The notes: generated by a model from the sequence alone, not told the origin. Positions 16,230 to 49,477 are shown, counted from the first letter of the stretch. The stretch is DNA of 57,335 nucleotides from Bacteroidota bacterium (GCA_019695345.1 JAIBAE010000021.1:1-57335); one strand, 5' to 3'. Numbers and translations are program-made.

Positions 16230-16254
16230 AAGTAATTTCTTTTGGTACCCCACA

Positions 16255-18304: not shown

Positions 18305-18308
18305 AGAA

Positions 18309-22067: not shown

Positions 22068-23030
22068 TTAATCGTGTTTAGGAATTACAACCCACTGTCC
22101 GCCAATGGGAAGTATAGTAACTGTTGTATCTGTAATGCCACGCGCTTGCATTGCCGTGCGCAAAATGCCTGATGCTTCGCCCACAGTATCAGCTGTTGAG
22201 TTAGAATAGGTATCAAAATGAATTGGCATCATGTGTTTGGCTTTTAAATCGATAAACCCTTGCAGCGCTTCAATGGGGTCGGTATGGGCGCGCTTCATAA
22301 ACTCACGAGGATGAATAGGTGCAATAGGCATGAGAGCACAATCTATGTTGGGAAAGCGCGCACCTGCTTTTGTAAAAATAGAATCGTTATAACCGGTGTC
22401 GCCACCAAAGTACACGCGCATTCCGTGGTATTCCAACACATAGCCGGTGCATGAATTGCGCATCCATGTTTCATCCAAACCGTAACGCCCACCAAGATGT
22501 TGCACAGGAACCGCGGTAATGCTAATGCCATCGCGCGTCCACGTTTGCCACGGGCGTAACTCTATAGTTGGAAAGCTATAATTTGGCGTATAGGTTAATC
22601 CTTCTTGCGGAACAAACAAACGCGAGGTTTTATCTTCAATCTCATCAAGCGAACCATACGATAAATGGTCGAAGTGCATATGCGATACCAACACGGCACT
22701 TAAAGTTGGTAGTTTTTCTATATCAATACCCGGCTCGTAAAACCGCTTTGAAAGCATGCCAACTGTAGAAGTAAGATTGGGGTCGGTAAGGAAAAACTTA
22801 TCATCCATTTGTATAAGCACCGTAGCGTGCCCAACCCACGTAACAGCAAGGCGCGCATCGCTCCGTTGTAATGTAGTTGGTTTGTTTGCAACAGGTTTAA
22901 TGGGCTGTACGTACGATTCCATATTCCGCGAGAAGAAACTCCAGAACGGAACTTTACATCCACTGCTTCCCACAGCAAACAAGCACACTATAAGCAACGT
23001 ACACAGTTTGGTAAAAATTGATGAGTTCAC
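22068..23030 (-). CDS. Metallo-beta-lactamase-fold hydrolase (NAPE-PLD-like), secreted paralog
   Basis: Signal peptide. HxHxDH motif (VSHMHFDHLS). Tandem paralog of 21076..22059. Confidence 0.75.
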   Translation of the reverse strand: MNSSIFTKLCTLLIVCLFAVGSSGCKVPFWSFFSRNMESYVQPIKPVANKPTTLQRSDARLAVTWVGHATVLIQMDDKFFLTDPNLTSTVGMLSKRFYEPGIDIEKLPTLSAVLVSHMHFDHLSYGSLDEIEDKTSRLFVPQEGLTYTPNYSFPTIELRPWQTWTRDGISITAVPVQHLGGRYGLDETWMRNSCTGYVLEYHGMRVYFGGDTGYNDSIFTKAGARFPNIDCALMPIAPIHPREFMKRAHTDPIEALQGFIDLKAKHMMPIHFDTYSNSTADTVGEASGILRTAMQARGITDTTVTILPIGGQWVVIPKHD

Positions 23031-23689: not shown

Positions 23690-23789
23690 ATGCATTGCAA
23701 ACAGAACATAATATAGGCGGGACAATAACATATGCTAAGTAACACGGACTATTGTGGATAAGATACTATACAAATGTTTGTTGAATGCG

Positions 23790-23850
23790 ATGCTGTACGG
23801 GGTGGTTCGCACCGGGTTGGCGCGCTTAAGGGTTGCTTCGGTAGATGAGA
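23790..23850. repeat. Family B dispersed repeat (forward-type)
   Basis: GGTGGTTCGCACCGGGTTGGCGCGCTTAAGGGTTGCTTCGGTAG. Confidence 0.6.
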
Positions 23851-24045
23851 GTAAAAATATATCTATTATGATTTGTAGTTAAAGGATTAAACTTTTATCA
23901 ACAGAATTGTGTGTGATAGCGAACTGCCTATATTTGTAAAGCATCGAATTTCAAAAATTAAGTGTATTCGGTATCTTTATATATAGAGCAGTGTGATACT
24001 GTAGATATTTGCGTTATTTTATTCACATTATAGGGGAGTTCTTTT

Positions 24046-28344: not shown

Positions 28345-28462
28345 TCCCACTTCTGCCGAAGCATCGCTTAAGCGCGCCAACCCGGTGCGAGCCAAACGTT
28401 CAGCGTCGCAGATAATTACTCTCTCGCAAAGTAGCAAAGACGCAGAGGGTACGAATGGTGTC
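28345..28462. repeat. Family B dispersed repeat with leader segment (reverse orientation, about 115 bp)
   Basis: TTCTGCCGAAGCATCGCTTAAGCGCGCCAACCCGGTGCGAGCCAAACGTTCAGCGTCGCAGATAATTACTCTCTCGCAAAG…. This is the reverse complement of the 44363-44480 and 49054-49170 type. Confidence 0.65.
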
Positions 28463-28690
28463 TTGTTATTCTGAGCAATGTGAAGAACCTTTCGCCACTG
28501 CTTTGTCATTCTGAGCAGCGCGAAGAATCTGTTCAGGTGTGGCTACTGTATTAACGTAATTTTCGTAGCGACGCGCGATGCCTCGCGTCGAGGAAATACA
28601 CAACAGTATGGCATTGTGCACTCTGTGAATAACTCTGTGCAACTCTGTGGGAACCTCGTACAAATGTAGAGTTTTTGCGCCGCTGTAACG
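28462..28690. repeat. Cluster of short repeat modules: 2x TGTCATTCTGAGCA…GAAGAA motif, C-hairpin (GCGACGCG…CGCGTCG), D-module (3x ACTCTGTG)
   Basis: CTTGTTATTCTGAGCAATGTGAAGAACC and TGTCATTCTGAGCAGCGCGAAGAATC (reverse of GATTCTTCGCGNTGCTCAGAATGACA). CGTAGCGACGCGCGATGCCTCGCGTCGAGG (same as 48956-48995 and 56680-56715). CACTCTGTGAATAACTCTGTGCAACTCTGTGGGAACCTCG (same as 46900-46950 and 54595-54655 in reverse). Confidence 0.6.
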
Positions 28691-28740
28691 ATTGGCTCCG
28701 CCCGTGTGACGGCGCTGAAGAATTGCTTCGGCGTTGAACC
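28691..28740. repeat. Family B dispersed repeat (variant GGCTCCGCCCGTGTGACGGCGCTGAAGAATTGCTTCGGCG)
   Basis: Shares CCGCCCGTGTGACGGCGC with the 16255 and 31471 copies and GCTTCGGC with the forward-type copies. Confidence 0.5.
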
Positions 28741-30099: not shown

Positions 30100-31431
30100 T
30101 TATCCTTTACCTATTATCTTCACAACCGACCACGTTTCGGGCGTGCAAAACTGCTCGGCAAGGTACTTCATGTCTTGCAGGGTAACAGCATCAATAGCCG
30201 CAATGGTTGCCATAACATCTTCGTGCGCGCCTTCTTCCATTTCCATTTTGGCTAATGTTTGCATCCGTGCCGACATGCTTTCTAACGCCATAATTGTTGA
30301 TGATTTTAATTGCTCTTTTGCGCGTTGTAATTCGCGAGCGGGAATAGTATCGGTTATCAGCTTTTGTAACTCTGCCGCAATTAATGTTTCTGTTCTCTGT
30401 AGTGTTGCTGTTTCTGTTCCTGCATAAATAGAAAGTATGCCGCAGTCGGTAAGTAACTGCAACGATGAATACACCGTGTATGCCGATGCACTTTTCTCGC
30501 GGATGCGTTGGTGAAGGCGCGAGCTCATACCATCGCCAAGAATTGTGTTTAACAAGCTCAGTGCATAACGCTGTTTAGACTGCGCACCAAACGTGCGGCG
30601 TATAAGCAGTAAATGCGATTGCTGAAATGTACGTTCTGTTTCGATATGTTTAGGTGTAAACATACGTGGCAGTGTGCGTTTGTGTTGTACAACTTTGCGT
30701 CTGCGTTTGTACTTCCCAAAGTACCGTTCTACCATTGCAACTGCGTTACTGTGCGATATATTGCCTGCAATAGCAATCACAATGTTATCGGGTGTGTAAT
30801 ATGATGTATGGAAATCATGAAGTTGTGTTGCTGTAATATTCTTTACGGTGTCGGCATAGCCAATAATAGGATTACCCAGCGCGTGTTTACCAAACACCGA
30901 TTTTTCGCCAATATCCAGAATAAACTCTTCGGGTTCGTCGTCGTACGATTTGATTTCTTCTAAAATCACATTACGTTCTTTGCGAATATCCTCAGCCCGG
31001 AAAGCCGGGTTCATGGTAACATCGGCAACAAGCTCTACGGTTTTCTCAAAATGGTGAGAAAGTGCACGCACATAGTAGCACGTTTGTTCTTTAGAAGTAA
31101 ATGCGTTGATATACGCGCCTAACGATTCAAACTGCGATGCAATCTGTTTGGAACTGCGCGATGTGGTTCCCCTAAACACAGCATGTTCGGTAAAATGTGC
31201 AATGCCTGCTTGTAGCGGTTGTTCGTCGCGGGCTCCTACATCAATCCAAACACCAAGCGAGAAAGACTGCACCGTAGGTACTTCTTCGCTTATAATCCGT
31301 ATTCCGTTTGCAAGAGTACTTTTTTTGTACGTAGTAGTAAAAGGTTCGTGGGCGGGTAACTGAGTAACGTTGTTTCTATATCGTTTCATTTCAAAAGGTC
31401 TGTGATAAATCGTTTCAAAATTAGGAAACAT
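30100..31431 (-). CDS. M16-family (pitrilysin/insulinase-like) zinc peptidase
   Basis: Inverted zinc-binding motif HxxEH (GIAHFTEHAVFRG) with a downstream Glu. 443 aa. The start could be the internal MKRYRN. Confidence 0.8.
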   Translation of the reverse strand: MFPNFETIYHRPFEMKRYRNNVTQLPAHEPFTTTYKKSTLANGIRIISEEVPTVQSFSLGVWIDVGARDEQPLQAGIAHFTEHAVFRGTTSRSSKQIASQFESLGAYINAFTSKEQTCYYVRALSHHFEKTVELVADVTMNPAFRAEDIRKERNVILEEIKSYDDEPEEFILDIGEKSVFGKHALGNPIIGYADTVKNITATQLHDFHTSYYTPDNIVIAIAGNISHSNAVAMVERYFGKYKRRRKVVQHKRTLPRMFTPKHIETERTFQQSHLLLIRRTFGAQSKQRYALSLLNTILGDGMSSRLHQRIREKSASAYTVYSSLQLLTDCGILSIYAGTETATLQRTETLIAAELQKLITDTIPARELQRAKEQLKSSTIMALESMSARMQTLAKMEMEEGAHEDVMATIAAIDAVTLQDMKYLAEQFCTPETWSVVKIIGKG

Positions 31432-31470
31432 TCAACGGATAGCAGAGAAAAATACTGTAACGGAAGTCTG

Positions 31471-31556
31471 CATGGCTTCCCACTTGCGCCGTAGCAATCC
31501 GCCAGCGCCGTCACACGGGCGGAGCCAATCGGTACAGCATCGCAGTGAATGTTATG
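31471..31556. repeat. Family B dispersed repeat (reverse-type variant)
   Basis: …GCGCCGTCACACGGGCGGAGCCAATCGGTACAGCATCGCAG. Compare 46808 and 54502: GCCGTCACCCGGGCGGAGCCAACCGTTCAGCGTCGCAG. Confidence 0.55.
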
Positions 31557-31877
31557 TAGCCTTTATGATTTACCGGAATACTGTTATCTCAGCATAAAAC
31601 ATAAACTTACGTTTTACCACCGTAGAAAATGAGTACCGCCCCAACCAAAAACAATTATTACGTTTGCTAAGATTTTGCTAAGAAATGTTTCTGTTGAGAA
31701 AAAGTACATTTGTAATGATTACGTTATATAATAGTGTTTTGTTATTGCACCAATCAATTGTATGTTTGGAACAACGTAAAACAACAAGGCAACATATAGG
31801 TAAAAAGTAGATTAGTATTTGAAATATAATTAAGCGTTAGTTACTGGATTCTACGTGAAAATCTTGCAGGGTTAAAT

Positions 31878-31936
31878 GAATCAGAATACAGTAAGGGAAC
31901 GCCCGTTCGCGGGCGCGTTCTTTATTGTTCTGGTTC
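31878..31936 (+). promoter_or_regulatory. Conserved leader palindrome / terminator-like hairpin upstream of paralog A1
   Basis: GAATCAGAA…GGAACGCCCG-TTC-GCGGGCGCGTTC followed by TTTATTGTTCTGGTTC. About 130 bp upstream of the start codon. Conserved in the duplicate copy (34244-34303). Confidence 0.45.
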
Positions 31937-32063
31937 ACGGTTACCTGCAAGTACCGCACGTAGGACATAATGAATTGCCGCCCGTTTTTGCACATGGGAT
32001 AAAGGGAGCAAGGTGTGTTAAGGTGGGCTTATGGTTTTACTCACATTATAATAGGAGTTCTTT

Positions 32064-33374
32064 ATGAAACTCAGATTTGTTTTTTGTTGGGCAATCTTGT
32101 TATGCCTGACACACACACTTGCACGGGCCGGTAGTATCAATGATACTGTTTGGACAAAGCGGCTAAAGTCACCTATAAGTTTTATTACTTTTTCTCCTAA
32201 GGGTAATTTTATTGTCGTTGTATCCGACACAACTACCTATCTCTATGATAAAAACGGAACAGTTATCAATTCAAAAATTCCATCTCCGACAGGGCCAATG
32301 GGTAGTAGCAATCTTCAAGTGTTTATCACACAAGACGAACAACGAATAATCATGCAACATGATTCTGTTATACAGAGTTATGATGTTAAAACAGGAGAAC
32401 TCTTGAGGTCATTTGATGTTGATACAACACTATTCCGCATTGCAGCCATAAGCCCGAATGAACGATATTGCCTAACGCTTCAAAGTAGAAGTGGTGGTAT
32501 GTTTGATTCTGAAAATGGTTGGAAGGTATGGGATATGCAAACTGGAAAAGTATTGTATTCTAAGGATTATCAGAAAGAACCTGATTTTGATGTTGTAGCT
32601 CCATTACAAGGTAACGTTCTTTGTCAATCAAACAGAATAGTTGTACTGGAATATCGGAGATACAAAAATTCTTCTCGTACGCAGTTTACGACTCTGGTTT
32701 ATGACATCGAAACTCAACAAGTAACAGATACAATATTAAACACTCAAGAAGGATATAGTTTCAATGTCTCGCCTGATTGTAATTATTTCCAGTTTAGAAC
32801 CGATAGAACAGACTCCGGGATTGTTGTAAATAACCTAAAAACAGGAAAAGAACTATACAAGGTAAGATGCTTTGGAAGCACCTCAAGCACCATTGCCTTC
32901 ACACCCGACGAAAAGTATATAGCTATTGGAGACCCAAGTGCAGGAACAATCAAAATACTTAACTCAATTACTGGAGAGTTAACATGGAATGCCCCCGGTT
33001 CAGTTTATGGAATTAGTTTTAATAATGATTATTTGATGGCAATGTATCTACAAGAGTATTTAGTTTTAGCAAAACCAAAATTAAGTTCCACTAGTGTTAC
33101 TGGTAATGATATTATTGAAACAGATAATGTTCTCTATCCCAATCCAAACAGCGGTATGGTAAGCTATAGTATTACTTTAGATAAACCAAGTACCATCATC
33201 AACGAAGTTGTTTCTGTATCAGGTGAAATTTCTTTTCGGAACGAAACCCCATTGTTAGAATCCGGGAAACAAACAATTACCATTCCATTAGATAGTGTTG
33301 CTAACGGAGAATATCTGTTGAAGGTAAACGCCGGAACCAAAAGCATTACGTACAAACTTATCATTAACAAATAG
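32064..33374 (+). CDS. T9SS-secreted beta-propeller (WD40/PQQ-like) protein, paralog A1
   Basis: Signal peptide MKLRFVFCWAILLCLT. Beta-propeller-like blades. The C-terminal T9SS-like sorting domain (…YPNPNSGMVSYSITLDK…EYLLKVNAGTKSITYKLIINK) is identical to that of paralog A2. AGGAG SD upstream. Confidence 0.75.
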   Translation: MKLRFVFCWAILLCLTHTLARAGSINDTVWTKRLKSPISFITFSPKGNFIVVVSDTTTYLYDKNGTVINSKIPSPTGPMGSSNLQVFITQDEQRIIMQHDSVIQSYDVKTGELLRSFDVDTTLFRIAAISPNERYCLTLQSRSGGMFDSENGWKVWDMQTGKVLYSKDYQKEPDFDVVAPLQGNVLCQSNRIVVLEYRRYKNSSRTQFTTLVYDIETQQVTDTILNTQEGYSFNVSPDCNYFQFRTDRTDSGIVVNNLKTGKELYKVRCFGSTSSTIAFTPDEKYIAIGDPSAGTIKILNSITGELTWNAPGSVYGISFNNDYLMAMYLQEYLVLAKPKLSSTSVTGNDIIETDNVLYPNPNSGMVSYSITLDKPSTIINEVVSVSGEISFRNETPLLESGKQTITIPLDSVANGEYLLKVNAGTKSITYKLIINK

Positions 33375-33386
33375 GGATGTACAACC

Positions 33387-33860
33387 ATGAAAAACCTAAT
33401 CATTTTGGTAACAATATTCGTTACCACACTTTCGGCGTATGCACAAAACAATATTAACCCACAACCCCTCGGTACCTTCACTACCGATAACATTGATTGG
33501 AATAGTACTGTATTTAACACTAACATCAACTATTTTGTCCGCTCATGGAATTGGGCTCGCCCCTGTAAAAAGCTCGATGATGCCTTGTACATTAACAGCT
33601 ATCACAACATAAATTTCGACAACATCATCGAAACCAATCTCGACGTACCCGATAATCTACCCGTGTTTCAACAACTCTACGGCGACCCCAACAACTGGTG
33701 GCGAGGTGCAGGATTAACCCAATCTTGGAGCACACCAAGTTTATTTAATACACAAAGTATGTGTTACCACCCCGAACTAACAGTCGACACAACGGACAGT
33801 TTTCAACCCATGTTGAACGATGCTCAAGGCGCAGTATTTGGGTGGTTAAATAATATGTAA
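33387..33860 (+). pseudogene. Truncated 5' copy (157 codons) of the 1767-aa giant T9SS protein gene
   Basis: The first ~150 codons are near-identical at DNA level to 35758..36210. The reading frame ends where a dispersed-repeat copy (33862-33920) interrupts the homology. Confidence 0.75.
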
Positions 33861-33861
33861 T

Positions 33862-33920
33862 CCCGCTTACGCCGAAACGAAACTCAAGCGCGCCAACCCT
33901 GTGCGAACCAACCGTTTACC
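33862..33920. repeat. Family B dispersed repeat (reverse-type) at a segmental-duplication junction
   Basis: CCGCTTACGCCGAAACGAAACTCAAGCGCGCCAACCCTGTGCGAACCAACCGTTTACC. It sits exactly where homology between the truncated (33387-33860) and full-length (35758-) gene copies ends. Confidence 0.65.
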
Positions 33921-34243
33921 TATCGCAATCATATTGTGTAGGTTATCCACATGAGTAGAAAATGAGTACCACATGAGTAGAAAATGAGTACCACCCTATT
34001 AAAAAACATTATTTACGTTTGCTAAGATTTTGCTAAGATTTTGCTAAGAAATCTACATCAATACATTAAACATATTTGAATTGTAAGAACTGATAAGAAT
34101 TGTCTTTGCCGTTGAACCAATCAATTGTAAGTTTGGAGCAAGGTAAAACAATAGGCATCAGGATATACATATAGTCATTTAGTTTTTTGATACATAGTTA
34201 GCGTTTGTTACTGGATTCCATACTAAAACTTGCCAAGTTATTG

Positions 34244-34303
34244 AATCAGAATCACAGTAAAGGAACGCCCGCTTGCGGGCGCGTTCTTTATTGTTCTGAT
34301 TCA
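34244..34303 (+). promoter_or_regulatory. Conserved leader palindrome / terminator-like hairpin upstream of paralog A2
   Basis: GAATCAGAATCACAGTAAAGGAACGCCCGC-TTG-CGGGCGCGTTCTTTATTGTTCTGATTC. The outer GAATCAGAA/TTCTGATTC arms and the inner GC-rich arms are both inverted. Confidence 0.45.
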
Positions 34304-34428
34304 CGGTTCTGGCAAGTACCGAGTATGGAGCATAAATGAAATGCCGCCCGTTTTTGCACATGGGAAAAAGGGAGCAAGGTGTGTTGAGGTGGGCTACTTG
34401 TTTTACTCACATTTTTTAGGAGTTCTTT

Positions 34429-35745
34429 ATGAAACTCAGATTTGTTTTTTGTTGGGCAATCTTGTTATGCCTAACCAACATACTGTTATGTGCCGGAGGT
34501 ACCGAAGATACCGTTTGGACGCGGCGGCTAAAGTCACCAATAAGTTTTATTACCTTTTCACCTAAGGGTAATGTTATTGCTGTTGTGTCTGACACAACAA
34601 CCTATCTCTATGATAAGAACGGAATGGTCATCAGTTCAAACATTCCATCTCCAACAGGACCACTGACTAGTTTTAATAATAAAGTTTTTTTCGTGCAAAA
34701 TGAAGAAAACATATTGATGTTACATGACTCTGTAATACAGATATATAGCACACAAACAGGTGATTTGGTTCAATCATTTGATATAGATACAACATTGATT
34801 CGTATAGAGGGCATAAGCTCAGATGAGCAATATTGTTTAACAATACAAAGTAGAAGCGGAGGAATGTTTGATTCTCAAATTGGTTGGAAAATATGGGATA
34901 TGAAAACAGGAAAAGTACTAAAGTATAAAGAGTATAACGAGCCGCTTCCGAATGTCCGTAAAGTATCTCCATATATGGGTACATTTTTGTGTTCAGGTAA
35001 CAAAGTAGCTATAAAGGAATTTAAATATTACAATTCACCACCCGGAACATCAACTACGTACACAGTTATTTACGACGTAGAAACGCTTACTCCTTTAGAT
35101 ACAATTCAGGAAGAAGAAAAATCGTGGAAATTTACCATGTCACCGCAATGTACGTACATAGCATATAATTTACAACGCAATGATACCGGAATAAAAATCT
35201 ACAATGTAGCCACTAAAAAACTTGTGCGCTCACTTCGATGCAATGGCAATTCTGCCAGTACAATAGCATTTACTAATGATGATCAATATATTATAGTTGG
35301 GAATGTTGGTACTAACACTATAGATGTTACAAAGGTATCAACCGGAGAAAATGTATGGCATTTAGAAGGCACTACTCCACAGGGAATAAGTATCACAAGT
35401 GATAATTATTTGGCATTATTTGTTTCGTACCATTTGGATTTATACAAGCCAAATTTCCTAACAAGTGTTTCCGATATATCTCATCAAACAATTAACACAG
35501 TCATCTATCCAAATCCGGCAATTAAGGATTTACAATTAGGGGTAGAAATAGTATCACCATCAAGTGTAAAAATAGAAATAATATCTTTAATCGGAGTAGT
35601 AGTTTATCAAACAGAAACCCCACTACTCAACTCCGGTAATCAAACAATAACCATACCGTTAGAGAGTGTTGCTAACGGAGAATATCTGTTGAAGGTAAAC
35701 GCCGGAACCAAAAGCATTACGTACAAACTTATCATTAACAAATAG
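34429..35745 (+). CDS. T9SS-secreted beta-propeller (WD40/PQQ-like) protein, paralog A2
   Basis: Same N-terminal 16 aa and same C-terminal ~35 aa as A1 (identical DNA). The core is only about 45-55% identical by eye. SD AGGAG upstream. Confidence 0.75.
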   Translation: MKLRFVFCWAILLCLTNILLCAGGTEDTVWTRRLKSPISFITFSPKGNVIAVVSDTTTYLYDKNGMVISSNIPSPTGPLTSFNNKVFFVQNEENILMLHDSVIQIYSTQTGDLVQSFDIDTTLIRIEGISSDEQYCLTIQSRSGGMFDSQIGWKIWDMKTGKVLKYKEYNEPLPNVRKVSPYMGTFLCSGNKVAIKEFKYYNSPPGTSTTYTVIYDVETLTPLDTIQEEEKSWKFTMSPQCTYIAYNLQRNDTGIKIYNVATKKLVRSLRCNGNSASTIAFTNDDQYIIVGNVGTNTIDVTKVSTGENVWHLEGTTPQGISITSDNYLALFVSYHLDLYKPNFLTSVSDISHQTINTVIYPNPAIKDLQLGVEIVSPSSVKIEIISLIGVVVYQTETPLLNSGNQTITIPLESVANGEYLLKVNAGTKSITYKLIINK

Positions 35746-35757
35746 GGATGTACAACC

Positions 35758-38700
35758 ATGAAAAACCTAATCATTTTGGTAACAATATTCGTTACCACAC
35801 TTTCGGCGTATGCACAAAACAATATTAACCCACAACCTCTCGGTACCTTCACTACCGATAACATTGATTGGAACAGTACTGTATTTAACACTAACATCAA
35901 CTATTTTGTCCGCTCATGGAATTGGGCTCGCCCCTGTAAAAAGCTCGATGATGCCTTGTACATAAACAGCTATCACAATATAAGCTTTGATAACATCATT
36001 GAAACCAATCTCGACGTACCCGATAATCTACCCGTGTTTCAACAACTCTACGGCGACCCCAACAACTATTGGCGAGGTGCAGGATTAACCCAATCTTGGA
36101 GCACACCAAGTTTATTTAATACACAAAGTATGTGTTACCACCCCGAACTAACAGTTGACACAACGGACAGTTTTCAACCCATGTTGAACGATGCTCAAGG
36201 TGCAGTATTTGGTTGGCTAACCAAACAACTTGGCGCACGTGGCACCGGAACCGACCAATGGCGTTGGGTTTTGCAAGCAAATCAAGTAAGTGGTACACGT
36301 GTTAAAGTTCTTTCCAATGCTTGGAAACCTGATGCCTTTACGTTTCTTGATTGGTTAATTAATCAAGGTGATCTGGCTGACACGTGGGCTACAGGCATGA
36401 ATGATTTACAAACTGGTTCTATTCTTGATACAGGTTTCTACCATCCCCGTAACGGTAAAAGAATGTACTGCACCATCAACCTGCGTGCAACAAATACATC
36501 ACAAATAGCACAACATCTCGATGACCCTGTACTGGCAATCCGGCTTCCGTATGTATTGTATGATTCTGCTTCAGGAAACAGTACAAACGGGGTTATTGTA
36601 TTTGATTCATTACCGAATGCAAATGCCACACTAACGCAAATAGTTGGGCGCAATGCAAACGATACACGTGGGATGTATCGCCCGCAACAACTTTCCCGCG
36701 ATACCATAATTATCATAACAGGAAGGATGTTACAAAACGCCAATACCGATAACAGTGTAACACTTTCAGGATTTTTCTTTGCTGATGGTTTAACTCACCA
36801 AGGAGTTTATGACAACAACCCAAGGTTTAAGGATGAGCGTGGCGACATACAAGCATCTTTGCAAAGTATTATAAAATTAGATGTTGAGGCTTACTATTAC
36901 GGCAATGTAGATGTTGCAATAGATTATATAAGAATAGAAACACAACAAGCCCGCAAAATATACTTTGGTTCAATAGATAACCCTGCCCGTGATTCTTTAC
37001 AAGAAACAATAATACGTTTTATACTTAATAGTAAGCACCCACGCCTTGCACGTATTTATGGAGTAGAAGAGCGAAGACAATCATGGTGGGGTGTTAACCG
37101 CTATTTCAATAAACTGATGAATGATAATGCCACAACCGAACTGGGTATTCATGAAAATTCACCGTACAGCCATTATATGCATGCAACTGGGTATAAAGAG
37201 CTTTGGAATGCATATACGTTGTTATTTAATGCAGGTGTTGCAGCTCCTTATCTACGATATGCTCATCATGATTCTGTAGGTACTGGTAATAATATGCATA
37301 ACGTCTTTTCAGCAAGAACTTTTGGGTTTATGGCCGGATATAGTGGTAATGATTGGCTTACAAATCTACCACCATCCAACTGGGATACGCTTAAATCACA
37401 TTACGAAACCATTATCAACTCTTCAACACAACCCGGACTTACCGGATTTGCAAATAATTCCTATGCTCCGTACCAAAAATTTAATAGTGGTAGTGCAACG
37501 CATTATACCCTAGGGGTTCAATTTGAAATTGAACAACAGTTATACCAACGGTATTACAAACAAAATGCCTTCTTGTTTGGCTCAACAAAATGGTGGGCTA
37601 ACATTTGGGCTTCATCATGGGGGTGGCGTTTGGATAATAGTATTAATACAGCAAAGTTGAACGCTAATGAGGTACGCCCTAAAACAGGGGAAGAGCTACA
37701 ATATATACTTTGGAACACAATATTAATGGGTGCTAAAGGTATTCAATATTATGCTGATATAAGTTTACCTAATGAAGGTACTGGTTTTGGTGCATTAGTT
37801 GGTTATATAGTTCGTGACCCACTTGGATATGCGAACAATAATTATCCAACGGGTAACGCCTTGCTGTATTCTGATGTAGCAGGCACGGATTGGATGGATT
37901 TAAATGATATACAAAGTAATAATTGGAGCAACATTGTTCATATACAAAATAATTGGTTGAATTTAATGGGTACAGACCAAAATCATATTTATGTAGGTAT
38001 GAAAACACCCCGAGTGGTTACGTCAAAAATAAATAAATGGATTTCCGACAATGAACAAGAGTTATTGGCATTGAAATTACAGGCATGGTATGGTAAAGGG
38101 TTTGTAAAAATGTACACTCAACATAGTCAGTATCAGGTAAACGATACACTGTTAGGTCATTATGTTAATCTATCAGGGCTAAAATCGCGTCCAATCAACC
38201 GAGTTCATCAAGATGGAACACCTTACTATGAAAACGAATCGTTACAGAATGGAGATTCAACCTTTGCTGATGTAATGTTACATAAACATTCATCATTTTC
38301 ATTAGACAGTGTGTTTTATCTTGGTGTGCAATCACGTAGAACAGACCCACTCTTCAGAGAAAGTTCCTATAATAATGGCGAAATGACTTTTATACCTACA
38401 GCAGATTGGGATAACCTCATGCAAAACGGTGGAACATATTGGCGTGACAACAATAGTCAAACAACCGCTTGGTGGCAAGACAAATACTGGAAACGACAAG
38501 GATGTAGAGAAATCACAATTCCATTTAACTATTCCACATTGCCAAGTGAACCCCGATTACTCCATGTACAGGAAGTAGGAGGAGGAATAGATACGATAAT
38601 AAGAACAACAGGAAAATTGGCAATCAGGTTTACTCCCGGGGAGGGCAAGCTTTTGAGAGTTACAATCCAACGGGCAAGGTTAGATGTAGCAGAAGGAGAA

Positions 38701-41061
38701 CTTCATAATACAAATCAATCCAAAATTGTGGCATATCCACTCATGAGAGCAAACTATGCAGGTTGCACCCTTGATGCTACCGATAGCGTTGTATATTACA
38801 TGACGTATGCACGTACAGATTTTCTAACTGACAATCAGGAAGTATATTTCCGTCGTTCATTACCAAGTAAACAAAGTGATAATCACACGATGGGTTTACA
38901 ATGGGAAGATGAGATATGTTTGAGTTGTAATGGTATTCTGAAGTTAGATAACCGACTTCAAATGTTACATTGTGGAGTGCCAACTATTGTAGTAAGAGTA
39001 GATACCGCAGATAGAGATTATAGTCAAATGTTATGTGCCAATGGAATACCACAGCTAAAGACCTATGTTGTGTATGGTTGTGCAGACAACATAGATTCTA
39101 CCAAATTCAGAGTAGTTGAAAACGTATTTTTAGCACAAGGAACTATAAATGTTGGTAATGCCTTGGAAATTGATAGTTCAAATGGGATTCGTAAAGATGC
39201 CTATGGAATAAACACAACTGATCAAGAATTTATCTGGACATGGACCTCACCTGCCGTAAACGCCTCATCAAGTGGTAACTACTATGCGTATTCGGATTCC
39301 TTATTAGGAATTGTGACACGTTGGAAACCTGCGGATGCTTTGTTATTTGATGCTAACCAATCAGATAAAAATTCTGTACGTTTTTCAACTACAAGTATCA
39401 CACAATGTTTACATCCATCCTTGAACACCTATTCAAGAATTAGTCAATGGGAAAATGAATGTGCGCTTGTGTGGGAAGAACATGGAAGACCGGAAGCACC
39501 AAGTAATATTATTCCATACACAAGGATTAAGTTAAATCCAATTACTAACCCGCCACAAACAATGCATTTTCTTTCAAAGAATTTAACAAACTTCACGCCG
39601 TTCAGGTCACAGTGTAATATTGATAGCAGTGTTGTTCTGCTAAGTCTTGATACCATTGATGATAAAGAGTTCCCAATGGTGTATCGTGGAGTTGAGAACT
39701 ATCATACAGTAAATCCAACTCCGTTAGTAACAAGACATTGGGATAAAATTATATGGCAAAATTGGAGATATGATACTATATATCATTCGGAACTATATTT
39801 ACGGGGAGTAAATTCTCAGGATTCATGCGCTACTACCGACGCGGGGTGGAATGTATGGTGGTTAAATAAAATTTGGTCAGAGAATGTGTTTCTAGTTAAT
39901 CCCAACATTACACAAGGCGGAGGTGTAAGAATAGATCCAAATGATAACGCAACGAATATAAGTGATAGTTCAATAGTTGTGAATTTTTCGTATGATCCAC
40001 CTCATGATACCAGAATCATGCAAGCACAATTTGGATATTGGTCTGTCACACCAAACTTTAACTTGTTATCAATAGAGAATTTGAATAATAATTTGAACTA
40101 CGTGCCGTATGTTCAAGATATTACCGATGGGGCATATCCGCATGTATCGGCTCAACCGTGGGTAACAAATTCATCATCATGGAACATCAATCGTAGGATA
40201 TATTCACCAGATTGGGAGAGTGCTACAATAGTTAGTTCGGCACAATACTTTTATAAAAAATTCAACTCTGAAAACTCAAAACCTTTACATTACACCGGAT
40301 ATTACTTTGAAGGAGACAGCAATAGAATGGTAAAAACACTGTTCTCTAATATGAAAGTTGCCAATAAAGATGTATTGTTTGCTCCACAACGTACAATCAG
40401 TAATACAACAGTACTAGCAAAAACAGATACAATATATAGTACATGGTTTACTGTTGGAAACACAACAATCCTTGATTCATATTTGTTAGGTGTTAATAAT
40501 CCTTGTGTAAAAATAGAGGTAGAAAAAAGACGGGAAAGTAATAATGAACCCGTAGAACGATATACACTACCTTATACGAGTTCACGAAATGACCGTGAAA
40601 AACTCAAACATCGTTACACTTTACTTCGTGGAGGCAACAAGTATTATAGAATAGCATTAGTTAACCTGTGTCCACAACGAATGAAAGTAACGGAAGAAAT
40701 TCAGATTGATGGATTGCGTTCAATTGATGAATTGGGTAAGCAATCAGATGGAGAAGAATATGTTTACAGCGTTGATTTAGGAAAGAGTTTTGTAGCTGAT
40801 GATGTGTTATTTATCAAACCAAATCCGGCAGATCAACTGATAGATATTACGTTTAACGGATTATTAGAGGATATAGAGACATCAAACTTTGACTATAGTT
40901 ATGAGGTTGCAGATAATATTGGAAGGATAAAACAGAAAGGTCTCATACGGGCAGGTGAGTCGATACAAGTAAATACAAGTGGTTTATCTCAAGGTTCATA
41001 TGTAGTTCGTGTAAGAGGTTCGATAAATACATTGAGTAAATCTTTTGTGATAATGAGATAA
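35758..41061 (+). CDS. Giant (1767 aa) secreted protein with a T9SS-like C-terminal domain, function unknown
   Basis: Signal peptide MKNLIILVTIFVTTLSAYA. No recognisable catalytic motifs. The C-terminal ~90 aa (DVLFIKPNPADQLIDITFNG…YVVRVRGSINTLSKSFVIMR) are T9SS CTD-like. A strong intrinsic terminator follows at 41092-41134. Confidence 0.7.
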   Translation: MKNLIILVTIFVTTLSAYAQNNINPQPLGTFTTDNIDWNSTVFNTNINYFVRSWNWARPCKKLDDALYINSYHNISFDNIIETNLDVPDNLPVFQQLYGDPNNYWRGAGLTQSWSTPSLFNTQSMCYHPELTVDTTDSFQPMLNDAQGAVFGWLTKQLGARGTGTDQWRWVLQANQVSGTRVKVLSNAWKPDAFTFLDWLINQGDLADTWATGMNDLQTGSILDTGFYHPRNGKRMYCTINLRATNTSQIAQHLDDPVLAIRLPYVLYDSASGNSTNGVIVFDSLPNANATLTQIVGRNANDTRGMYRPQQLSRDTIIIITGRMLQNANTDNSVTLSGFFFADGLTHQGVYDNNPRFKDERGDIQASLQSIIKLDVEAYYYGNVDVAIDYIRIETQQARKIYFGSIDNPARDSLQETIIRFILNSKHPRLARIYGVEERRQSWWGVNRYFNKLMNDNATTELGIHENSPYSHYMHATGYKELWNAYTLLFNAGVAAPYLRYAHHDSVGTGNNMHNVFSARTFGFMAGYSGNDWLTNLPPSNWDTLKSHYETIINSSTQPGLTGFANNSYAPYQKFNSGSATHYTLGVQFEIEQQLYQRYYKQNAFLFGSTKWWANIWASSWGWRLDNSINTAKLNANEVRPKTGEELQYILWNTILMGAKGIQYYADISLPNEGTGFGALVGYIVRDPLGYANNNYPTGNALLYSDVAGTDWMDLNDIQSNNWSNIVHIQNNWLNLMGTDQNHIYVGMKTPRVVTSKINKWISDNEQELLALKLQAWYGKGFVKMYTQHSQYQVNDTLLGHYVNLSGLKSRPINRVHQDGTPYYENESLQNGDSTFADVMLHKHSSFSLDSVFYLGVQSRRTDPLFRESSYNNGEMTFIPTADWDNLMQNGGTYWRDNNSQTTAWWQDKYWKRQGCREITIPFNYSTLPSEPRLLHVQEVGGGIDTIIRTTGKLAIRFTPGEGKLLRVTIQRARLDVAEGELHNTNQSKIVAYPLMRANYAGCTLDATDSVVYYMTYARTDFLTDNQEVYFRRSLPSKQSDNHTMGLQWEDEICLSCNGILKLDNRLQMLHCGVPTIVVRVDTADRDYSQMLCANGIPQLKTYVVYGCADNIDSTKFRVVENVFLAQGTINVGNALEIDSSNGIRKDAYGINTTDQEFIWTWTSPAVNASSSGNYYAYSDSLLGIVTRWKPADALLFDANQSDKNSVRFSTTSITQCLHPSLNTYSRISQWENECALVWEEHGRPEAPSNIIPYTRIKLNPITNPPQTMHFLSKNLTNFTPFRSQCNIDSSVVLLSLDTIDDKEFPMVYRGVENYHTVNPTPLVTRHWDKIIWQNWRYDTIYHSELYLRGVNSQDSCATTDAGWNVWWLNKIWSENVFLVNPNITQGGGVRIDPNDNATNISDSSIVVNFSYDPPHDTRIMQAQFGYWSVTPNFNLLSIENLNNNLNYVPYVQDITDGAYPHVSAQPWVTNSSSWNINRRIYSPDWESATIVSSAQYFYKKFNSENSKPLHYTGYYFEGDSNRMVKTLFSNMKVANKDVLFAPQRTISNTTVLAKTDTIYSTWFTVGNTTILDSYLLGVNNPCVKIEVEKRRESNNEPVERYTLPYTSSRNDREKLKHRYTLLRGGNKYYRIALVNLCPQRMKVTEEIQIDGLRSIDELGKQSDGEEYVYSVDLGKSFVADDVLFIKPNPADQLIDITFNGLLEDIETSNFDYSYEVADNIGRIKQKGLIRAGESIQVNTSGLSQGSYVVRVRGSINTLSKSFVIMR

Positions 41062-41091
41062 AGTTTGAGATTACTATTAATCTTAAACAAA

Positions 41092-41134
41092 GGGTGACTG
41101 TGAGCAAGGGAGCGCAGTCGCCCTTTTTTATTTT
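41092..41134 (+). terminator. Rho-independent terminator after the giant T9SS gene
   Basis: Stem GGGTGACTG / CAGTCGCCC (9 bp with one G-U pair) followed by TTTTTTATTTT. Confidence 0.8.
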
Positions 41135-41267
41135 CACTTGATAGTTATTAAAGGAGCAAAGCACTTGGATGTTGACGCTGTTGGCGGTGATTCTCTGCAA
41201 ACCACTATTGCAGAATGGATGAATACTCATTTGAATCAGTCACGATAAAGGTTGGAACAGTAGATGA

Positions 41268-41331
41268 ACTTTTCTCTCCCGCATGGCAAGGCACACGGGA
41301 GAGAGCTAAGGTTTGGTGCGGTTTGCGGTAG
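41268..41331. repeat. Partial MITE (right end only)
   Basis: TTCTCTCCCGC…CGGGAGAGAGCTAAGGTTTGGTGCGGTTTGCGGTAGCA matches the M6 right end (TCTCTCCCGCCG…AAGGTTTGGTGCGGTCATGCGATAGCA). Confidence 0.5.
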
Positions 41332-41386
41332 CAAATTCCTATGATGAAATATATGATATAATCACAGGACCTCTTTAAAGTGAGAT

Positions 41387-44244: not shown

Positions 44245-44480
44245 CAATATAACCGTAGGAGCGAATAGATATTCGCCCATGTGTAGATAGATGATGAATG
44301 AACATTACACAAAAACCGGTAAGATTCTTCGCGTTGCTCAGAATGACGAAGCAGCGTTTATACCCTTTGCGCCTCTGCAAACTTTGCCTCTTTGCGAGAG
44401 AGTGATTAACAGCGACGCTGAACGTGCGGTTCGCACCGGGTTGGCGCGCTTAAGGTATGCTTCGGCATAGGCGGGAAGCA
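44245..44480. repeat. Composite repeat: hairpin unit (GGAGCGAATAGATATTCGCCC), GATTCTTCGCGTTGCTCAGAATGAC motif, leader and forward family B element
   Basis: CCCTTTGCGCCTCTGCAAACTTTGCCTCTTTGCGAGAGAGTGATTAACAGCGACGCTGAACGTGCGGTTCGCACCGGGTTGGCGCGCTTAAGGTATGCTTCGGCATAGGCGGGAAGC. About 90% identical to 49010-49170. Confidence 0.65.
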
Positions 44481-46787: not shown

Positions 46788-46807
46788 AAAATAACATTTA
46801 TGTATTC

Positions 46808-46882
46808 CCACCTCTGCCGAAGCACGCCATACTACGCCGTCACCCGGGCGGAGCCAACCGTTCAGCGTCGCAGTTAATTCTA
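46808..46882. repeat. Family B dispersed repeat (reverse orientation); left inverted boundary of FG-GAP cassette 1
   Basis: Its reverse complement GAATTAACTGCGACGCTGAACGGTTGGCTCCGCCCGGGTGACGGCG…GCTTCGGCAGAGGTGGG matches 49085-49168 at both ends. Confidence 0.65.
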
Positions 46883-46957
46883 ATCAACGCAAGGACTCTA
46901 CACGTGTGCGAGATTCCCACAGAGTTACACATAGTTGTTCACAGAGTACACAAGAAA

Positions 46958-47115
46958 GATGCTTCGCATTACTCAGAATGACAAAAAGAGATAGAACGTG
47001 TATTGTTGTTCAATATAACCGTAGGGGCGAATAGACATTCGCCCATGTAATGATTGGTGAAGATGAACTCACAATAAGGCGATAGATTCTTCGCGTTGCT
47101 CAGAATGACAATAAA
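46958..47115. repeat. Composite ~125 bp repeat, 1.3 units (motif GAT[G/T]CTTCGC…CAGAATGACA + GGGCGAATAGACATTCGCCC hairpin)
   Basis: Same unit as the tandem array at 56741-57026; near-identical to 54656-54832. Confidence 0.65.
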
Positions 47116-47304
47116 GATAATGAAGTATTACGGATATGATGTAAGAATACAGAACATAACCCCATGCTTTAGCGTGGGGAAATCAAACATAACAACATGC
47201 TCTCGGACTTTAGTCCTGAGTGGTTGCAGGGCTAAAGCCCATGCCTGCGTTAGAGGTTTCTTCTCCGCGCTAAAGCGGCGGAGTTATTGAAATACGTTGG
47301 ATTC
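47116..47304. repeat. 190-bp multi-hairpin element, copy 1 (abuts the stop codon of FG-GAP gene F1)
   Basis: Four stem-loops: CCCCATGC-TTTA-GCGTGGGG (47160-47179), CTCGGACT-TTA-GTCCTGAG (47202-47220), GCAGGGC-TAAA-GCCCATGC (47226-47244), CTCCGCGC-TAAA-GCGGCGGAG (47263-47283). Near-identical copies at 54833-55003 and 57027-57214. Confidence 0.7.
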
Positions 47305-47319
47305 TTCGCGTGGGGAAAG

Positions 47320-48870: not shown

Positions 48871-49009
48871 AGCGTTGTTGTTTCCAACCTGCAAACTTGT
48901 TTTTTTTGGTGGTGATTGAAAAAGGAGTTTTTGCAGAGTACACAATGCCTGTTTATTTTCGACGCGAGGCATCGCGTCGCTACGAAAAACTACGATTATA
49001 CAACAAGGA

Positions 49010-49170
49010 GACAGATTCTTCGCGTTGCTCAGAATGACAAGGCACCATTCGTACCCTTTGCGCCTTTGCAAACTTTTGCCTCTTTGCGAGAGAGTGATTA
49101 ACTGCGACGCTGAACGTGCGGTTCGCACCGGGTTGGCGCGCTTGAGGTTTGCTTCGGCGAAGGCGGGGAA
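49010..49170. repeat. Composite repeat: GATTCTTCGCGTTGCTCAGAATGACA motif, leader and forward family B element; right inverted boundary of FG-GAP cassette 1
   Basis: …GTACCCTTTGCGCCTTTGCAAACTTTTGCCTCTTTGCGAGAGAGTGATTAACTGCGACGCTGAACGTGCGGTTCGCACCGGGTTGGCGCGCTTGAGGTTTGCTTCGGCGAAGGCGGGGAAC. Confidence 0.65.
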
Positions 49171-49290: not shown

Positions 49291-49477
49291 TAAAGAGAAT
49301 GTATTTGCTGACCTACGCATACATAGTTTCGTAGTGTGGATTTGATGCAACGCGCTATTACTCGGCATTGGGGAATGTTGTTAGGCAGTTGCCACTCACA
49401 TCAACTTGACATACTACGGAGAGGGAGATTCTAAAGGATTAGACCAATTGTTTTTTGTTCACCTTTTGGAGTTTCCC

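Follow-up and report, generated by a model that had tools for sequence, protein, structure and literature searches.

Here we describe a tandem segmental duplication with a period of approximately 2.36 kb, in which the front end of a conserved two-gene operon is present twice. Judging from sequence comparison, both units are recombinational mosaics, and gene A, the first gene of the operon, is probably a hypervariable, recombining cassette of which this genome has two variants in tandem. The duplication lies within a stretch of 57,335 nucleotides, referred to below as the window.

Layout of the duplicated locus

The two units are collinear and arranged head to tail at approximately 31615-33846 and 33970-36217, with an offset of 2355-2371 nt, and direct repeats span the entire region. 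The duplicated content comprises a REP-like element, a leader of approximately 450 nt, gene A (436 or 438 aa) and the first 460 nt of a giant gene encoding 1767 aa; all parts of the two units are on the plus strand. In unit 1, gene A1 (32064-33374) encodes a 436-aa protein with a putative signal peptide, a seven-bladed beta-propeller and a T9SS type A C-terminal domain (CTD). It is followed by an intact ORF of 157 codons (33387-33860), a truncated copy of the giant N-terminus that consists of the putative signal peptide and approximately 135 aa; having no CTD, this fragment is therefore not a T9SS cargo. In unit 2, the A1 paralog A2 (34429-35745, 438 aa) is followed by the full giant gene (35758-41061), the conserved partner of gene A. 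The operon encodes a presumably secreted propeller protein and, 12 nt further on, a protein of approximately 1770 aa, each with a T9SS type A sorting domain or a domain resembling one. Each unit closes with a near-identical block. In unit 1 (33283-33846) it starts with the final 30 codons of A1 and runs across the 12-nt spacer through 460 nt of the giant-gene start; in unit 2 (35654-36217) it takes in the 3′ end of A2, the spacer and the beginning of the giant gene. ORF calls, a direct-repeat scan and sliding identity confirmed both the tandem duplication and the ORF coordinates of the original prediction, and allowed the novel junction between the units to be placed at 33846-33861. The host is an environmental Kapabacteria-like organism; Kapabacteria are an uncultured and poorly known phylum-level lineage of the FCB group.

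Leader 1 spans 31615-32063 and leader 2 spans 33947-34428. Leader 1 has the motif GTAGAAAATGAGTACC at 31622-31637 and two copies of the 11-nt direct repeat TTTGCTAAGAT at 31663-31683, while leader 2 has 2.2 copies of a 22-nt motif at 33947-33994 and three copies of TTTGCTAAGAT at 34018-34049. These are followed by a conserved block (31738-31784 and 34105-34151), an extended hairpin and a strongly conserved proximal leader (31976-32063 in unit 1, 34342-34428 in unit 2). The hairpin of unit 1 (31850-31965, 116 nt) has a predicted dG of -59 kcal/mol and a z of -8.3, and its minus strand folds less well (-45.9); that of unit 2 (34216-34330) has a dG of -56.6 and a z of -9.6. Five pairs are doubly compensated between the two hairpins, so that this long structure preserves its pairing through at least five double substitutions, and its inner GC stem with a U-run looks like a terminator. 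The proximal leader and the first 34 codons are also kept in other genomes, and conservation of the leader far exceeds that of the proteins downstream. Rfam 15 gave no match at gathering score in the whole window; at E < 1, the sole match within 31400-34500 was a chance snoRNA, with none for the leader, the hairpin or the REP-like element. A sigma-70 promoter scan returned the same counts as shuffled sequences, and no Bacteroidota-type promoter was located by eye. A metagenome DNA scan with the proximal-leader pattern gave no matches, and a protein-pattern scan of metagenomes found one locus, L091.

The A1 and A2 proteins are 54% identical, and a beta-propeller and a Por_Secre_tail were detected in both. 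The T9SS type A sorting domain model TIGR04183 scored 29.9 bits in A1 and 40 bits in A2 (cut-off 23), and PF18962 scored 29.8 and 38.3 bits (cut-off 27). The giant protein, named a T9SS sorting-domain protein by NCBI, has a CTD-like C-terminus that falls just under these curated cut-offs (26.9 bits for PF18962, 18 bits for TIGR04183). Hydrophobic N-termini with an A-x-A-like site were recognized by eye (MKLRFVFCWAILLCLTHTLARA; MKNLIILVTIFVTTLSAYA), and a structure model places a helix at residues 2-22, at the putative signal peptide. The A1 model is of moderate confidence (pLDDT 70), and its best PDB match is 1L0Q, a propeller with an Ig-like domain (E 3.4e-16, 427 aligned columns, 14% sequence identity, TM of approximately 0.5); the model of the giant N-terminus (440 aa, seven-sequence alignment) was unusable, at pLDDT 44. 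Other T9SS-tailed genes of the window lie at 49406-53896. A second paralog pair in the window, encoding FG-GAP proteins, likewise has conserved ends and a diverged core.

Close relatives of A1 and A2 proved scarce. A word-indexed search of 5.8 billion proteins returned the two paralogs alone, and a first genome scan with A2 as the query gave no match. An exhaustive HMM search found distant full-length relatives only (best E 2e-41, approximately 29% identity); apart from each other, A1 and A2 have no homolog above approximately 30% identity. A1, A2, M16 and the giant protein in its MAG version were also looked up by exact match in a contig index, which had no record of any of them. With respect to synteny of the neighboring M16 peptidase, the best genomes are just 58% identical, and none carries the A-giant module beside M16. 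A foreign origin of either A core was rejected, as the two are alike in composition (GC 0.35/0.34, GC3 0.27/0.25), which gives no hint that either was imported from a different type of genome.

Identity along the units and cassette swapping among relatives

We computed pairwise sliding-window identity along the two units, together with dS and dN per codon segment. Identity is 60-75% in the distal leader (31620-31870), 85-94% over 31875-32300, 60-85% over 32300-32550, 40-55% over 32550-33230 and 97-100% over 33294-33846, where there are 15 mismatches in 553 nt. Over the proximal leader plus codons 1-80 as a whole, identity is 85-95%. The right boundary is sharp, as identity is approximately 75-80% over 33233-33293 and 100% starting at 33294. 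The expectation of identical ends around a diverged core was therefore borne out, with the 3′ end at 97-100%, the 5′ end at 85-95% and a core at approximately 45%. The figure of about 50% identity originally given for the core holds for the 3′ two thirds of the gene; it does not hold for the first 165 codons, where protein identity is approximately 75-80%.

Between A1 and A2, dS is 0.41 for codons 1-80, 1.8 for codons 81-165 and 0.055 for codons 408-436, and is saturated over codons 166-395, where dN is 0.69; between the 157-codon fragment and the giant gene it is 0.139. Synonymous divergence thus runs from 0.055 to saturation across sharp boundaries. With L088 and L091 as outgroups, adjacent segments were phylogenetically incongruent, although the segments compared are short (48-108 nt): codons 1-16 of unit 1 are 96% identical to unit 2 and 71% to L088, codons 17-34 are nearer to L088 (81%) than to unit 2 (70%), and codons 35-70 are 87% identical to unit 2 and 39% to L088. 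Gene conversion or cassette replacement was the class of explanation put forward in the original prediction, and the spread of dS within one gene and the incongruent segments support that choice.

Cassette replacement in particular finds direct comparative support in other genomes. The A-giant pair is conserved in L081/L082, L083-L086, L088 and L092, with one A per giant, and an A homolog adjoins every full-length giant homolog, which indicates that the second copy in this genome is derived. Between L088 and L092, the initial 690 nt of A are approximately 95% identical and its 3′ half approximately 45%; identity then returns to 85-95% in the giant gene for at least 2.4 kb, so that a diverged segment of approximately 620 nt lies between flanks of 85-95% identity. 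L088 and L091 are 93-98% identical in codons 1-34 and 46% identical in codons 35-70. That the same part of A has been swapped between similar flanks in other Kapabacteria is the basis on which we regard gene A as a likely recombining cassette.

The junction, the giant-gene fragment and competing explanations

The dispersed repeat family anticipated at the junction does exist, with at least 14 copies in the window, some of them as inverted pairs. A REP-like element of the GCGCCGTCAC..GGGCGGAGCC subtype (31478-31544) lies upstream of unit 1, and its counterpart at the junction (33847-33931) is of the different GCGCGCCAACCC.GTGCGAACC subtype, with an AT-rich left flank at 33848-33860 and a core at 33861-33931. 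Homology to the giant gene had been described as stopping exactly at the repeat. It ends at 33846-33850, 11-15 nt short of the core, and what does begin there is the AT-rich left flank. Repeat-mediated recombination in the classical sense was not upheld, since any REP-like similarity in the giant gene around the right breakpoint (36190-36330) scored no better than in shuffled sequence; a crossover between two element copies is thereby excluded for this junction. The unit ordinarily opens with this repeat, which also lies ahead of unit 1 and of the orthologous leader in L091, so that finding it at the start of unit 2 simply reflects unit membership. The FG-GAP duplication elsewhere in the window starts at the outer border of an element copy (46798/54495), which makes it plausible that duplication breakpoints are associated with repeat borders. 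The element itself shows no significant folding. DGR, shufflon and slipped-strand variation found no support in a scan of the window: no RT, recombinase or transposase domain was detected in any ORF of at least 150 aa, and the coding 5′ ends contain no simple-sequence repeats, the leaders carrying just the 11-nt and 22-nt motif repeats.

The fragment, annotated as MBX7154726.1, shares 152 of 154 residues with the giant N-terminus, and the exact ORF is present in a separate contig, L090. Its differences from the giant gene are clustered, with seven of them within 37 nt (33593-33629, p ~0.001), and biased toward synonymous changes (12 to 3; P = 3e-4 if the fragment were decaying neutrally), as would be expected for allelic differences between functional giant genes. 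Their number also varies with the assembly. For an ORF that is intact and differs so little, the earlier term “relic” is not appropriate, as no decay is evident. GC3 in the two 460-nt copies is 0.47 and 0.40, compared with 0.29 for the gene; we rejected this as a mark of biased conversion because the excess is weak and GC3 of homologs also rises at the 5′ end.

All sequences come from short-read assemblies, possibly of one sample. L090 (ENA ERZ27282907, MEGAHIT k141), from a separate assembly that may derive from the same sample, equals window 33195-34095 with one mismatch and covers A1-specific sequence, the fragment, the junction and the REP-like element, continuing into leader 2; the path from the end of A1 to leader 2 is therefore not peculiar to one assembly. 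The Logan contig L087 begins exactly at the first shared base, 35665, carries fragment-type bases over 35874-36201 joined to the remaining giant gene, passes unbroken through the right end of the repeat and is identical to the window over 36222-41334. Because assemblies disagree on which copy carries which SNP, the details of the 3′ block are uncertain, and for genome scanning in general, copy-specific SNPs in repeats of more than 500 nt are unreliable in short-read MAGs. A literature search on SRA run SRR1027651 found nothing.

We consider a recent duplication or allele capture, combined with a hypervariable cassette exchanged through conserved flanks, to be the probable origin of the two tandem variants. 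A possible but less favored alternative is an old tandem duplication, fragment included, whose cores diverged in place while repeated conversion kept the ends alike, with the most recent tract at 33283-33846 and an earlier one extending over the proximal leader and codons 1-80. Such a history would account for the three or more identity strata with sharp boundaries, for the 37-nt patch with seven differences, which resembles a patch that escaped conversion, and for the different placement of fragment-type and giant-type bases between assemblies, as if conversion were ongoing in the population; the slight rise of GC3 in the 460 nt fits GC-biased conversion too, albeit with a similar rise in homologs. 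However, it demands that a non-functional fragment of 157 codons stay intact while dS in the core becomes saturated, and it sits poorly with the different subtypes of the REP-like elements at the unit heads. In addition, relatives swap divergent cassettes between near-identical flanks without any duplication, so that divergence in place is not needed. Hardly credible is a single old duplication with uniform divergence, in which the ends are similar because of purifying selection on the signal peptide and the sorting domain. Conservation of the proximal leader and first 34 codons in other genomes does indicate that part of the 5′ similarity reflects functional constraint rather than conversion. 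Nevertheless, dS differs at least 30-fold along the gene, and the segment values, together with the incongruent segments, refute uniform divergence; moreover, 100 nt of non-coding spacer and 3′ end and the 460-nt truncated gene copy are 97-100% identical, for which protein-level selection is insufficient.

The REP-like element may alternatively have caused the duplication, by unequal crossover or by border activity such as nicking, replication stalling or transposition. Giant-gene homology ends where the AT-rich left flank of the element starts, the independent FG-GAP duplication begins at an element border, and element copies are numerous, some forming inverted pairs. We nonetheless regard this as unlikely given that nothing REP-like was seen in the giant gene at 36190-36330, that the element is the usual upstream neighbor of the leader in unit 1 and in L091, that it lacks a significant fold, and that no transposase or recombinase domain occurs in the window's ORFs of at least 150 aa. 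Even less probable is an assembly artefact, in which A1 and A2 would be alleles of two co-existing strains, each followed by a giant gene, strung together via the shared 3′ block. The source is a short-read MAG, the exact shared stretch, at 173-209 nt, exceeds usual k-mers, and L087, entering at 35665 with fragment-type SNPs and running unbroken into the giant gene, would fit a pattern of two entries and one exit. The fragment-REP junction (33846-33861), however, is unique and contains no repeat to cause a false join, and this junction, with both its A1-specific and leader 2 sides, was recovered in the separate k141 assembly. The giant gene is identical in L087 and the window over 36222-41334, giving no sign of two diverged giant alleles, and some molecule must in any case carry the 2.4-kb segment that starts with a truncated gene and continues with a full unit.

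Proposed history and comparison with known systems

Under recent duplication with cassette exchange, we infer the following order of events and mechanism. The duplication, or the capture of a second allele beside the first, was most likely recent, its age being given by the 563-nt 3′ block of 97-100% identity. The two copies would hold different alleles of a hypervariable cassette, made up of blades 4-7 of the propeller and the first half of the sorting domain, that is exchanged in this lineage by homologous recombination via conserved flanks. The left flank would be formed by the proximal leader, the signal peptide and the first blades, and the right flank by the final stretch of the sorting domain plus the giant gene. 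The outcome would be two propeller variants with a complete leader before each, both of them possibly expressed, A2 being followed by the full giant gene and A1 by the intact 157-codon ORF as a by-product. The pairs of direct repeats (563 nt at 97-100%; approximately 430 nt at approximately 88%) could serve as substrates for conversion, chimera formation and pop-out deletion.

The mechanism is an ordinary one in a new, uncharacterized gene family, and the mosaic pattern is well known from variable surface-protein genes. Tandem duplications with concerted evolution, such as the enterobacterial tuf genes, undergo RecA-dependent conversion and show near-identical repeats with sharp block boundaries. 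The present locus is similar in its near-identical direct repeats and sharp boundaries of identity blocks; in tuf-type evolution, however, the whole gene is homogenized, whereas in A1 and A2 similarity is confined to the ends, the middles differing as much as unrelated alleles do. Hypervariable loci of the replacement type, such as O-antigen, capsule and the central regions of pilin and flagellin, exchange divergent alleles via conserved flanks, and the diverged segment of L088 and L092 bears the same signature of allelic replacement. Unlike in O-antigen and capsule clusters, the variable unit here lies within one gene (blades 4-7 and the sorting domain), and two alleles stand in tandem. A further likeness, to the archaeal S-layer YVTN beta-propeller and PKD protein (1L0Q), a cell-surface protein with seven blades followed by a beta-sandwich as in the A1 model, is one of predicted fold only and says nothing of function. 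In Helicobacter pylori, babA, babB and babC have an N-terminal homology region, a variable middle and a C-terminal region of more than 90% identity, and intragenomic gene conversion within the homologous 5′ and 3′ parts gives rise to chimeric bab genes (PMC4552749). This is the layout of A1/A2 and of the FG-GAP pair. The bab genes differ in occupying dispersed loci, in encoding autotransporter-like OMPs of a pathogen and in the CT repeats of babB for phase variation, whereas A1 and A2 are in tandem, include a truncated copy of the downstream gene, have no simple-sequence tract in the coding 5′ end and encode T9SS cargo.

It is also conceivable, though we think it improbable, that the locus works as a system dedicated to varying a T9SS surface propeller. 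The leader, with its REP-like element, 11-nt direct repeats, 115-nt hairpin, 87-nt proximal element and signal peptide, would then act as a fixed expression site and left anchor and the start of the giant gene as the right anchor, with cassettes being swapped, stacked and popped out via the 563-nt repeat. If this were true, populations would switch the propeller variant that is made with the giant protein, and the hybrid haplotype of L087 would be a trace of such events. The locus provides a clean example of secreted surface-protein diversification in Kapabacteria, involving a conserved two-gene T9SS cargo module in which the propeller is the hypervariable partner, recombining by way of the conserved sequence on either side. 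Diversifying pressure appears to act on the two genes; they might, for example, encode an adhesin or something that phages or predators target.

Layout and identity profile of the duplicated segment

The two propeller genes lie in direct repeats that cover the whole region, with a start-to-start spacing of 2355-2371 nt. We recovered the open reading frames of the original prediction, namely A1 (32064-33374, 436 aa), a 157-codon fragment copying the 5′ end of the giant gene (33387-33860), A2 (34429-35745, 438 aa) and the giant gene itself (35758-41061, 1767 aa). Self-BLAST of the window paired 31622-32570 with 33977-34935 at 77% identity and 33243-33849 with 35614-36220 at 95.6%. When the two units were compared by sliding-window alignment, identity was 60-75% in the distal leader, 85-94% over the proximal leader and the first ~80 codons (31875-32300), 60-85% over 32300-32550, 40-55% over 32550-33230 and 97-100% over 33294-33846. 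The A1 and A2 proteins are 54% identical. The 12-nt spacer between the A gene and the giant gene or fragment does not differ between units, 152 of 154 fragment residues match the giant N-terminus, and the homology of these two ends at 33846-33850 / 36217-36221. The mosaic of like ends around a diverged core that had been read from the sequence is thus borne out by the identity plot; the observation was correct and its interpretation largely so.

Synonymous divergence between A1 and A2, estimated by the Nei-Gojobori method, changed along the gene: dS was 0.41 (dN 0.12) in codons 1-80, 1.8 in codons 81-165, saturated (dN 0.69) in codons 166-395 and 0.055 in codons 408-436. Protein-level selection, considered as the cause of the like ends, cannot lower dS 30-fold or hold a truncated gene copy identical, and the common ancestor of the 3′ block is therefore much younger than that of the cores. 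The mosaic is recombinational, not selective. Relationships also shifted between segments when the outgroup locus L088, from an NCBI Kapabacteria MAG, was included, although each segment is short: the units are 96% alike in codons 1-16 (L088 only 71%) and 87% alike in codons 35-70 (L088 only 39%), whereas in codons 17-34 unit 1 is nearer to L088 (81%) than to unit 2 (70%). This incongruence and the dS heterogeneity back the earlier preference for gene conversion or cassette replacement over one old duplication. Between fragment and giant gene dS was 0.139 and dN 0.008, a ratio to be read with caution because the assemblies disagree on which copy carries which base at the 15 variable sites. Among these differences synonymous changes outnumber the others 12 to 3, a bias with P = 3e-4 against neutral decay, and 7 of them fall within 37 nt, a clustering with p about 0.001.

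An outright assembly artefact is very improbable as the source of this arrangement. A 901-nt contig of an independent MEGAHIT k141 assembly (L090, ENA ERZ27282907) equals window positions 33195-34095 with one mismatch. It reaches from A1-specific sequence across the entire fragment, the junction and the dispersed repeat to 125 nt into leader 2. The window has no second copy of the junction sequence, and no repeat able to cause a false join is present at the junction. A Logan k31 contig from SRR1027651 (L087), corresponding to 35665-41334, begins precisely where the exactly shared stretch begins, which would be expected of a repeat entered by two different sequences, the A1 and A2 ends. Within its first 556 nt, 11 of the 12 sites from 35838 to 36201 (those at 35874-36201) have the fragment-type base, whereas the base is giant-type at 35838 and again from 36213 onward; its C at 36201 and T at 36213 form a combination found in neither window copy. 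Both L090 and L087 have T at 33467/35838, where the window fragment has C. It is these bases that make the assignment of variable sites assembly-dependent. Both copies may be the same over about 548 nt in the L090 and L087 assemblies, and the discordant sites may stem from simplification of the k-mer graph, from mixed strains, or from genuine products of conversion or crossover. Therefore, either copy-specific SNPs in the 3′ repeat are unreliable or the population is heterogeneous.

Proteins of the module and its relatives

A1 and A2 each hit beta-propeller (WD40-like) profiles, and for the T9SS type A sorting domain both score above the curated cut-offs. In the AlphaFold model of A1 (pLDDT 70) a signal helix is followed by 28 strands between residues 40 and 337, which would form seven blades, and by a beta-sandwich of seven strands (residues 352-434). 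Among PDB entries the model is most similar to 1L0Q, the propeller-plus-PKD module of an archaeal S-layer protein. Mapped onto this model, blades 1-3 make up the conserved first third of the protein; the diverged residues, about 166-395, extend over blades 4-7 into the sorting domain, of which they include the first half. In the giant protein the only recognisable domain is an end resembling the C-terminal sorting domain (CTD), which scores slightly under both curated cut-offs, and the model of its N-terminus has a pLDDT of 44.

No close relatives of A1 or A2 were found among 5.8 billion proteins. An exhaustive profile search recovered a family of 410-450 aa proteins with the same full-length architecture, and wherever genomic context was readable a giant homolog followed the A homolog after 9-16 nt. 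Such pairs occur at L081/L082 (A of 429 aa; giant of 1789 aa, 30% identical to ours over its full length), at L083-L086, at L088 (A of 435 aa; giant of >1666 aa, 40% identity) and at L092, a Logan contig from another run. All these loci have a single A for each giant gene, and the A-fragment-A-giant order of the window is therefore a lineage-specific duplication of the front end of the operon. At L083-L086 a histidine kinase gene lies immediately upstream of the module. The module itself is doubled on the activated-sludge contig L081 (3155-16675), where genes for a 544-aa and a 1703-aa protein, the latter 24% identical to the giant protein, directly precede the A and giant homologs.

The window proteins MBX7154725-28 belong to a MAG deposited as 'Bacteriodetes bacterium', and the closest relatives of a housekeeping M16 peptidase on the same contig are from Candidatus Kapaibacterium and Chlorobiota MAGs (58% identity). 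The window carries ordinary chromosomal genes. Two adjacent minus-strand genes for proteins of the metallo-beta-lactamase fold (Lactamase_B_2; 21076-22059 and 22068-23030) form another tandem paralog pair. Within the gene at 49406-53896, which encodes a 1496-aa T9SS-tailed protein with HYR domains, a 228-nt coding unit is repeated four to five times in tandem at 51455-52478, with 65-81% identity among copies.

Leader elements and the dispersed repeat

The two leaders, each of ~450 nt, share the order GTAGAAAATGAGTACC motif, TTTGCTAAGAT repeat, conserved block (31738-31784 / 34105-34151), hairpin and proximal element. The first motif occurs once in leader 1 and twice in leader 2, and the 11-nt direct repeat is present in two and three copies, respectively (31622-31683 and 33947-34049; 3058-3126 in L091, a JGI contig with an orthologous leader). 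Both motifs were found only before A genes. The 11-nt spacing of TTTGCTAAGAT resembles that of binding sites for winged-helix response regulators. L091 has both motifs, the first as an inverted pair GGTACTCAT..ATGAGTACC, as well as the conserved block and the final portion of the proximal element; the hairpin-bearing segment of about 215 nt is absent from it.

The 115-nt extended hairpin (31850-31965 / 34216-34330) has a dG of -59 kcal/mol in leader 1 and -56.6 kcal/mol in leader 2 (z -8.3 and -9.6), with weaker minus-strand folds (-45.9 and -53.5). Between the copies, 5 of 9 pairs in the outer helix have changed on both sides yet remain paired, and two further double changes with pairing kept were seen by eye in the next helix (CUUGCAGG/CCUGCAAG versus CUUGCCA/UGGCAAG). 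The inner stem and U-run look like a terminator. The hairpin could act in the mRNA, as an attenuator, stabiliser or processing site; alternatively, it could be a quasipalindrome in the DNA whose symmetry is maintained through templated repair. No further copies occur elsewhere in the window or in the related loci compared.

The proximal element, the 87 nt directly upstream of the A start codon, is 92% identical between units and 93-94% identical to L088. Since it is kept to this degree despite diverged proteins (only 25% identity for A, 40% for the giant), some of the similarity at the 5′ end is due to functional constraint. Together with the first 34 codons, which encode the signal peptide plus AGSINDTVWTKR, the element shows 80-95% nucleotide identity (31976-32165 and 34342-34530; 1-190 in L088; 3283-3450 in L091), while the rest of the A proteins is about 25% identical. 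Its non-coding part is better kept than the adjoining synonymous sites, a conservation pattern that points to a cis-regulatory element.

A REP-like element of about 70 nt (consensus TTCCCaCC..GCCGAAGCA..AGCGCGCCAACCCGGTGCGAACC..CAGCrTCGCA), typically with an AT-rich left flank, is present in the window as at least 14 intergenic copies, which point either way and are frequently arranged in inverted pairs (4652-4707, 4770-4862, 16246-16313, 16325-16393, 23759-23851, 28345-28439, 28676-28733, 31478-31544, 33861-33931, 44383-44476, 46804-46878, 49075-49167, 54501-54570 and 57204-57297). It falls into two subtypes, GCGCGCCAACCCGGTGCGAACC and GCGCCGTCACCCGGGCGGAGCC; neither a significant fold nor an Rfam match was obtained for it. 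The copy at 33861-33931, with its flank from about 33848, heads unit 2; a copy of the other subtype (31478-31544) lies upstream of unit 1, and one of the unit 2 subtype occupies the same place upstream of the L091 leader. Each unit therefore starts with the element, and homology to the giant gene stops at it because unit 2 begins there. Repeat-mediated recombination had been proposed for this junction. Homology does end at the repeat, but the giant gene has no REP-like similarity at the breakpoint, so the junction was not made by crossover between two copies of the element. The borders of the element and the breakpoints may still be linked in a looser way; the left homology boundary of a second duplication in the window also coincides with the outer border of a REP-like copy.

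This second duplication (46798-49167 and 54495-56768) is a mosaic pair 7.7 kb apart, encoding FG-GAP proteins with a CTD-like end on the minus strand (47320-49128 and 55019-56611). Their N-terminal 240 aa are about 97%, their middles about 25-30% and their last 60 aa about 93% identical; at the DNA level, blocks of 94.5% and 91.5% identity surround a middle without BLAST match, and the downstream block has a partial third copy at 56736-57214. Another intergenic repeat family occurs at 12512-12783, 18034-18305 and 20869-20958, two copies being 92-99% identical over about 270 nt and the partial third 78%.

Cassette exchange and origin of the tandem array

The original prediction had suggested looking for cassette variation in related genomes, and swapped propeller bodies were indeed seen there. 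In gene A, L088 and L092 share about 95% identity for the first 690 nt and about 45% across the 3′ half to the stop codon; in the giant gene identity is again 85-95%, across at least 2.4 kb. Between L088 and L091, codons 1-34 are 93-98% and codons 35-70 are 46% identical. In this lineage, therefore, the body of the propeller gene has been replaced by very divergent versions between alike flanks, and the pattern between genomes is the same as that between A1 and A2. The A1 and A2 cores have equal base composition and so come from the same kind of genome. Because divergent bodies are swapped between alike flanks and the cores share their composition, we favour the interpretation that the genome carries two alleles of a hypervariable cassette in tandem, with the near-identical 3′ block reflecting the recent age of the duplication or capture.

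One possible route would be integration at this locus of another strain's DNA, a segment made up of the REP-like element, the leader, A2 and the 5′ end of the giant gene. Homology within the giant gene would anchor this segment on the right, and on the left an illegitimate join would have formed at giant position +460, leaving the fragment as the recipient's original giant 5′ end. Such a route would account for the synonymous bias and clustering of the fragment-giant differences, which would then be allelic, between two functional genes. An old duplication with ends repeatedly homogenised by gene conversion explains the identity strata equally well, but it requires a useless fragment to survive intact for a very long time, and we consider it somewhat unlikely.

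No integrase, transposase, recombinase or reverse transcriptase is encoded in the window, and no feature of programmed variation (DGR, invertase or slipped-strand tract) is present. The A1/A2 layout resembles replacement-type surface loci in general. It is also like that of the H. pylori bab paralogs in having alike ends and a variable middle; in the latter a homologous N-terminal region, a variable middle and a near-identical C-terminal region are found, along with gene-conversion chimeras (PMC4552749). The evolutionary pattern is thus of a known kind, and what is new is the uncharacterised gene pair of an uncultured lineage in which it occurs.
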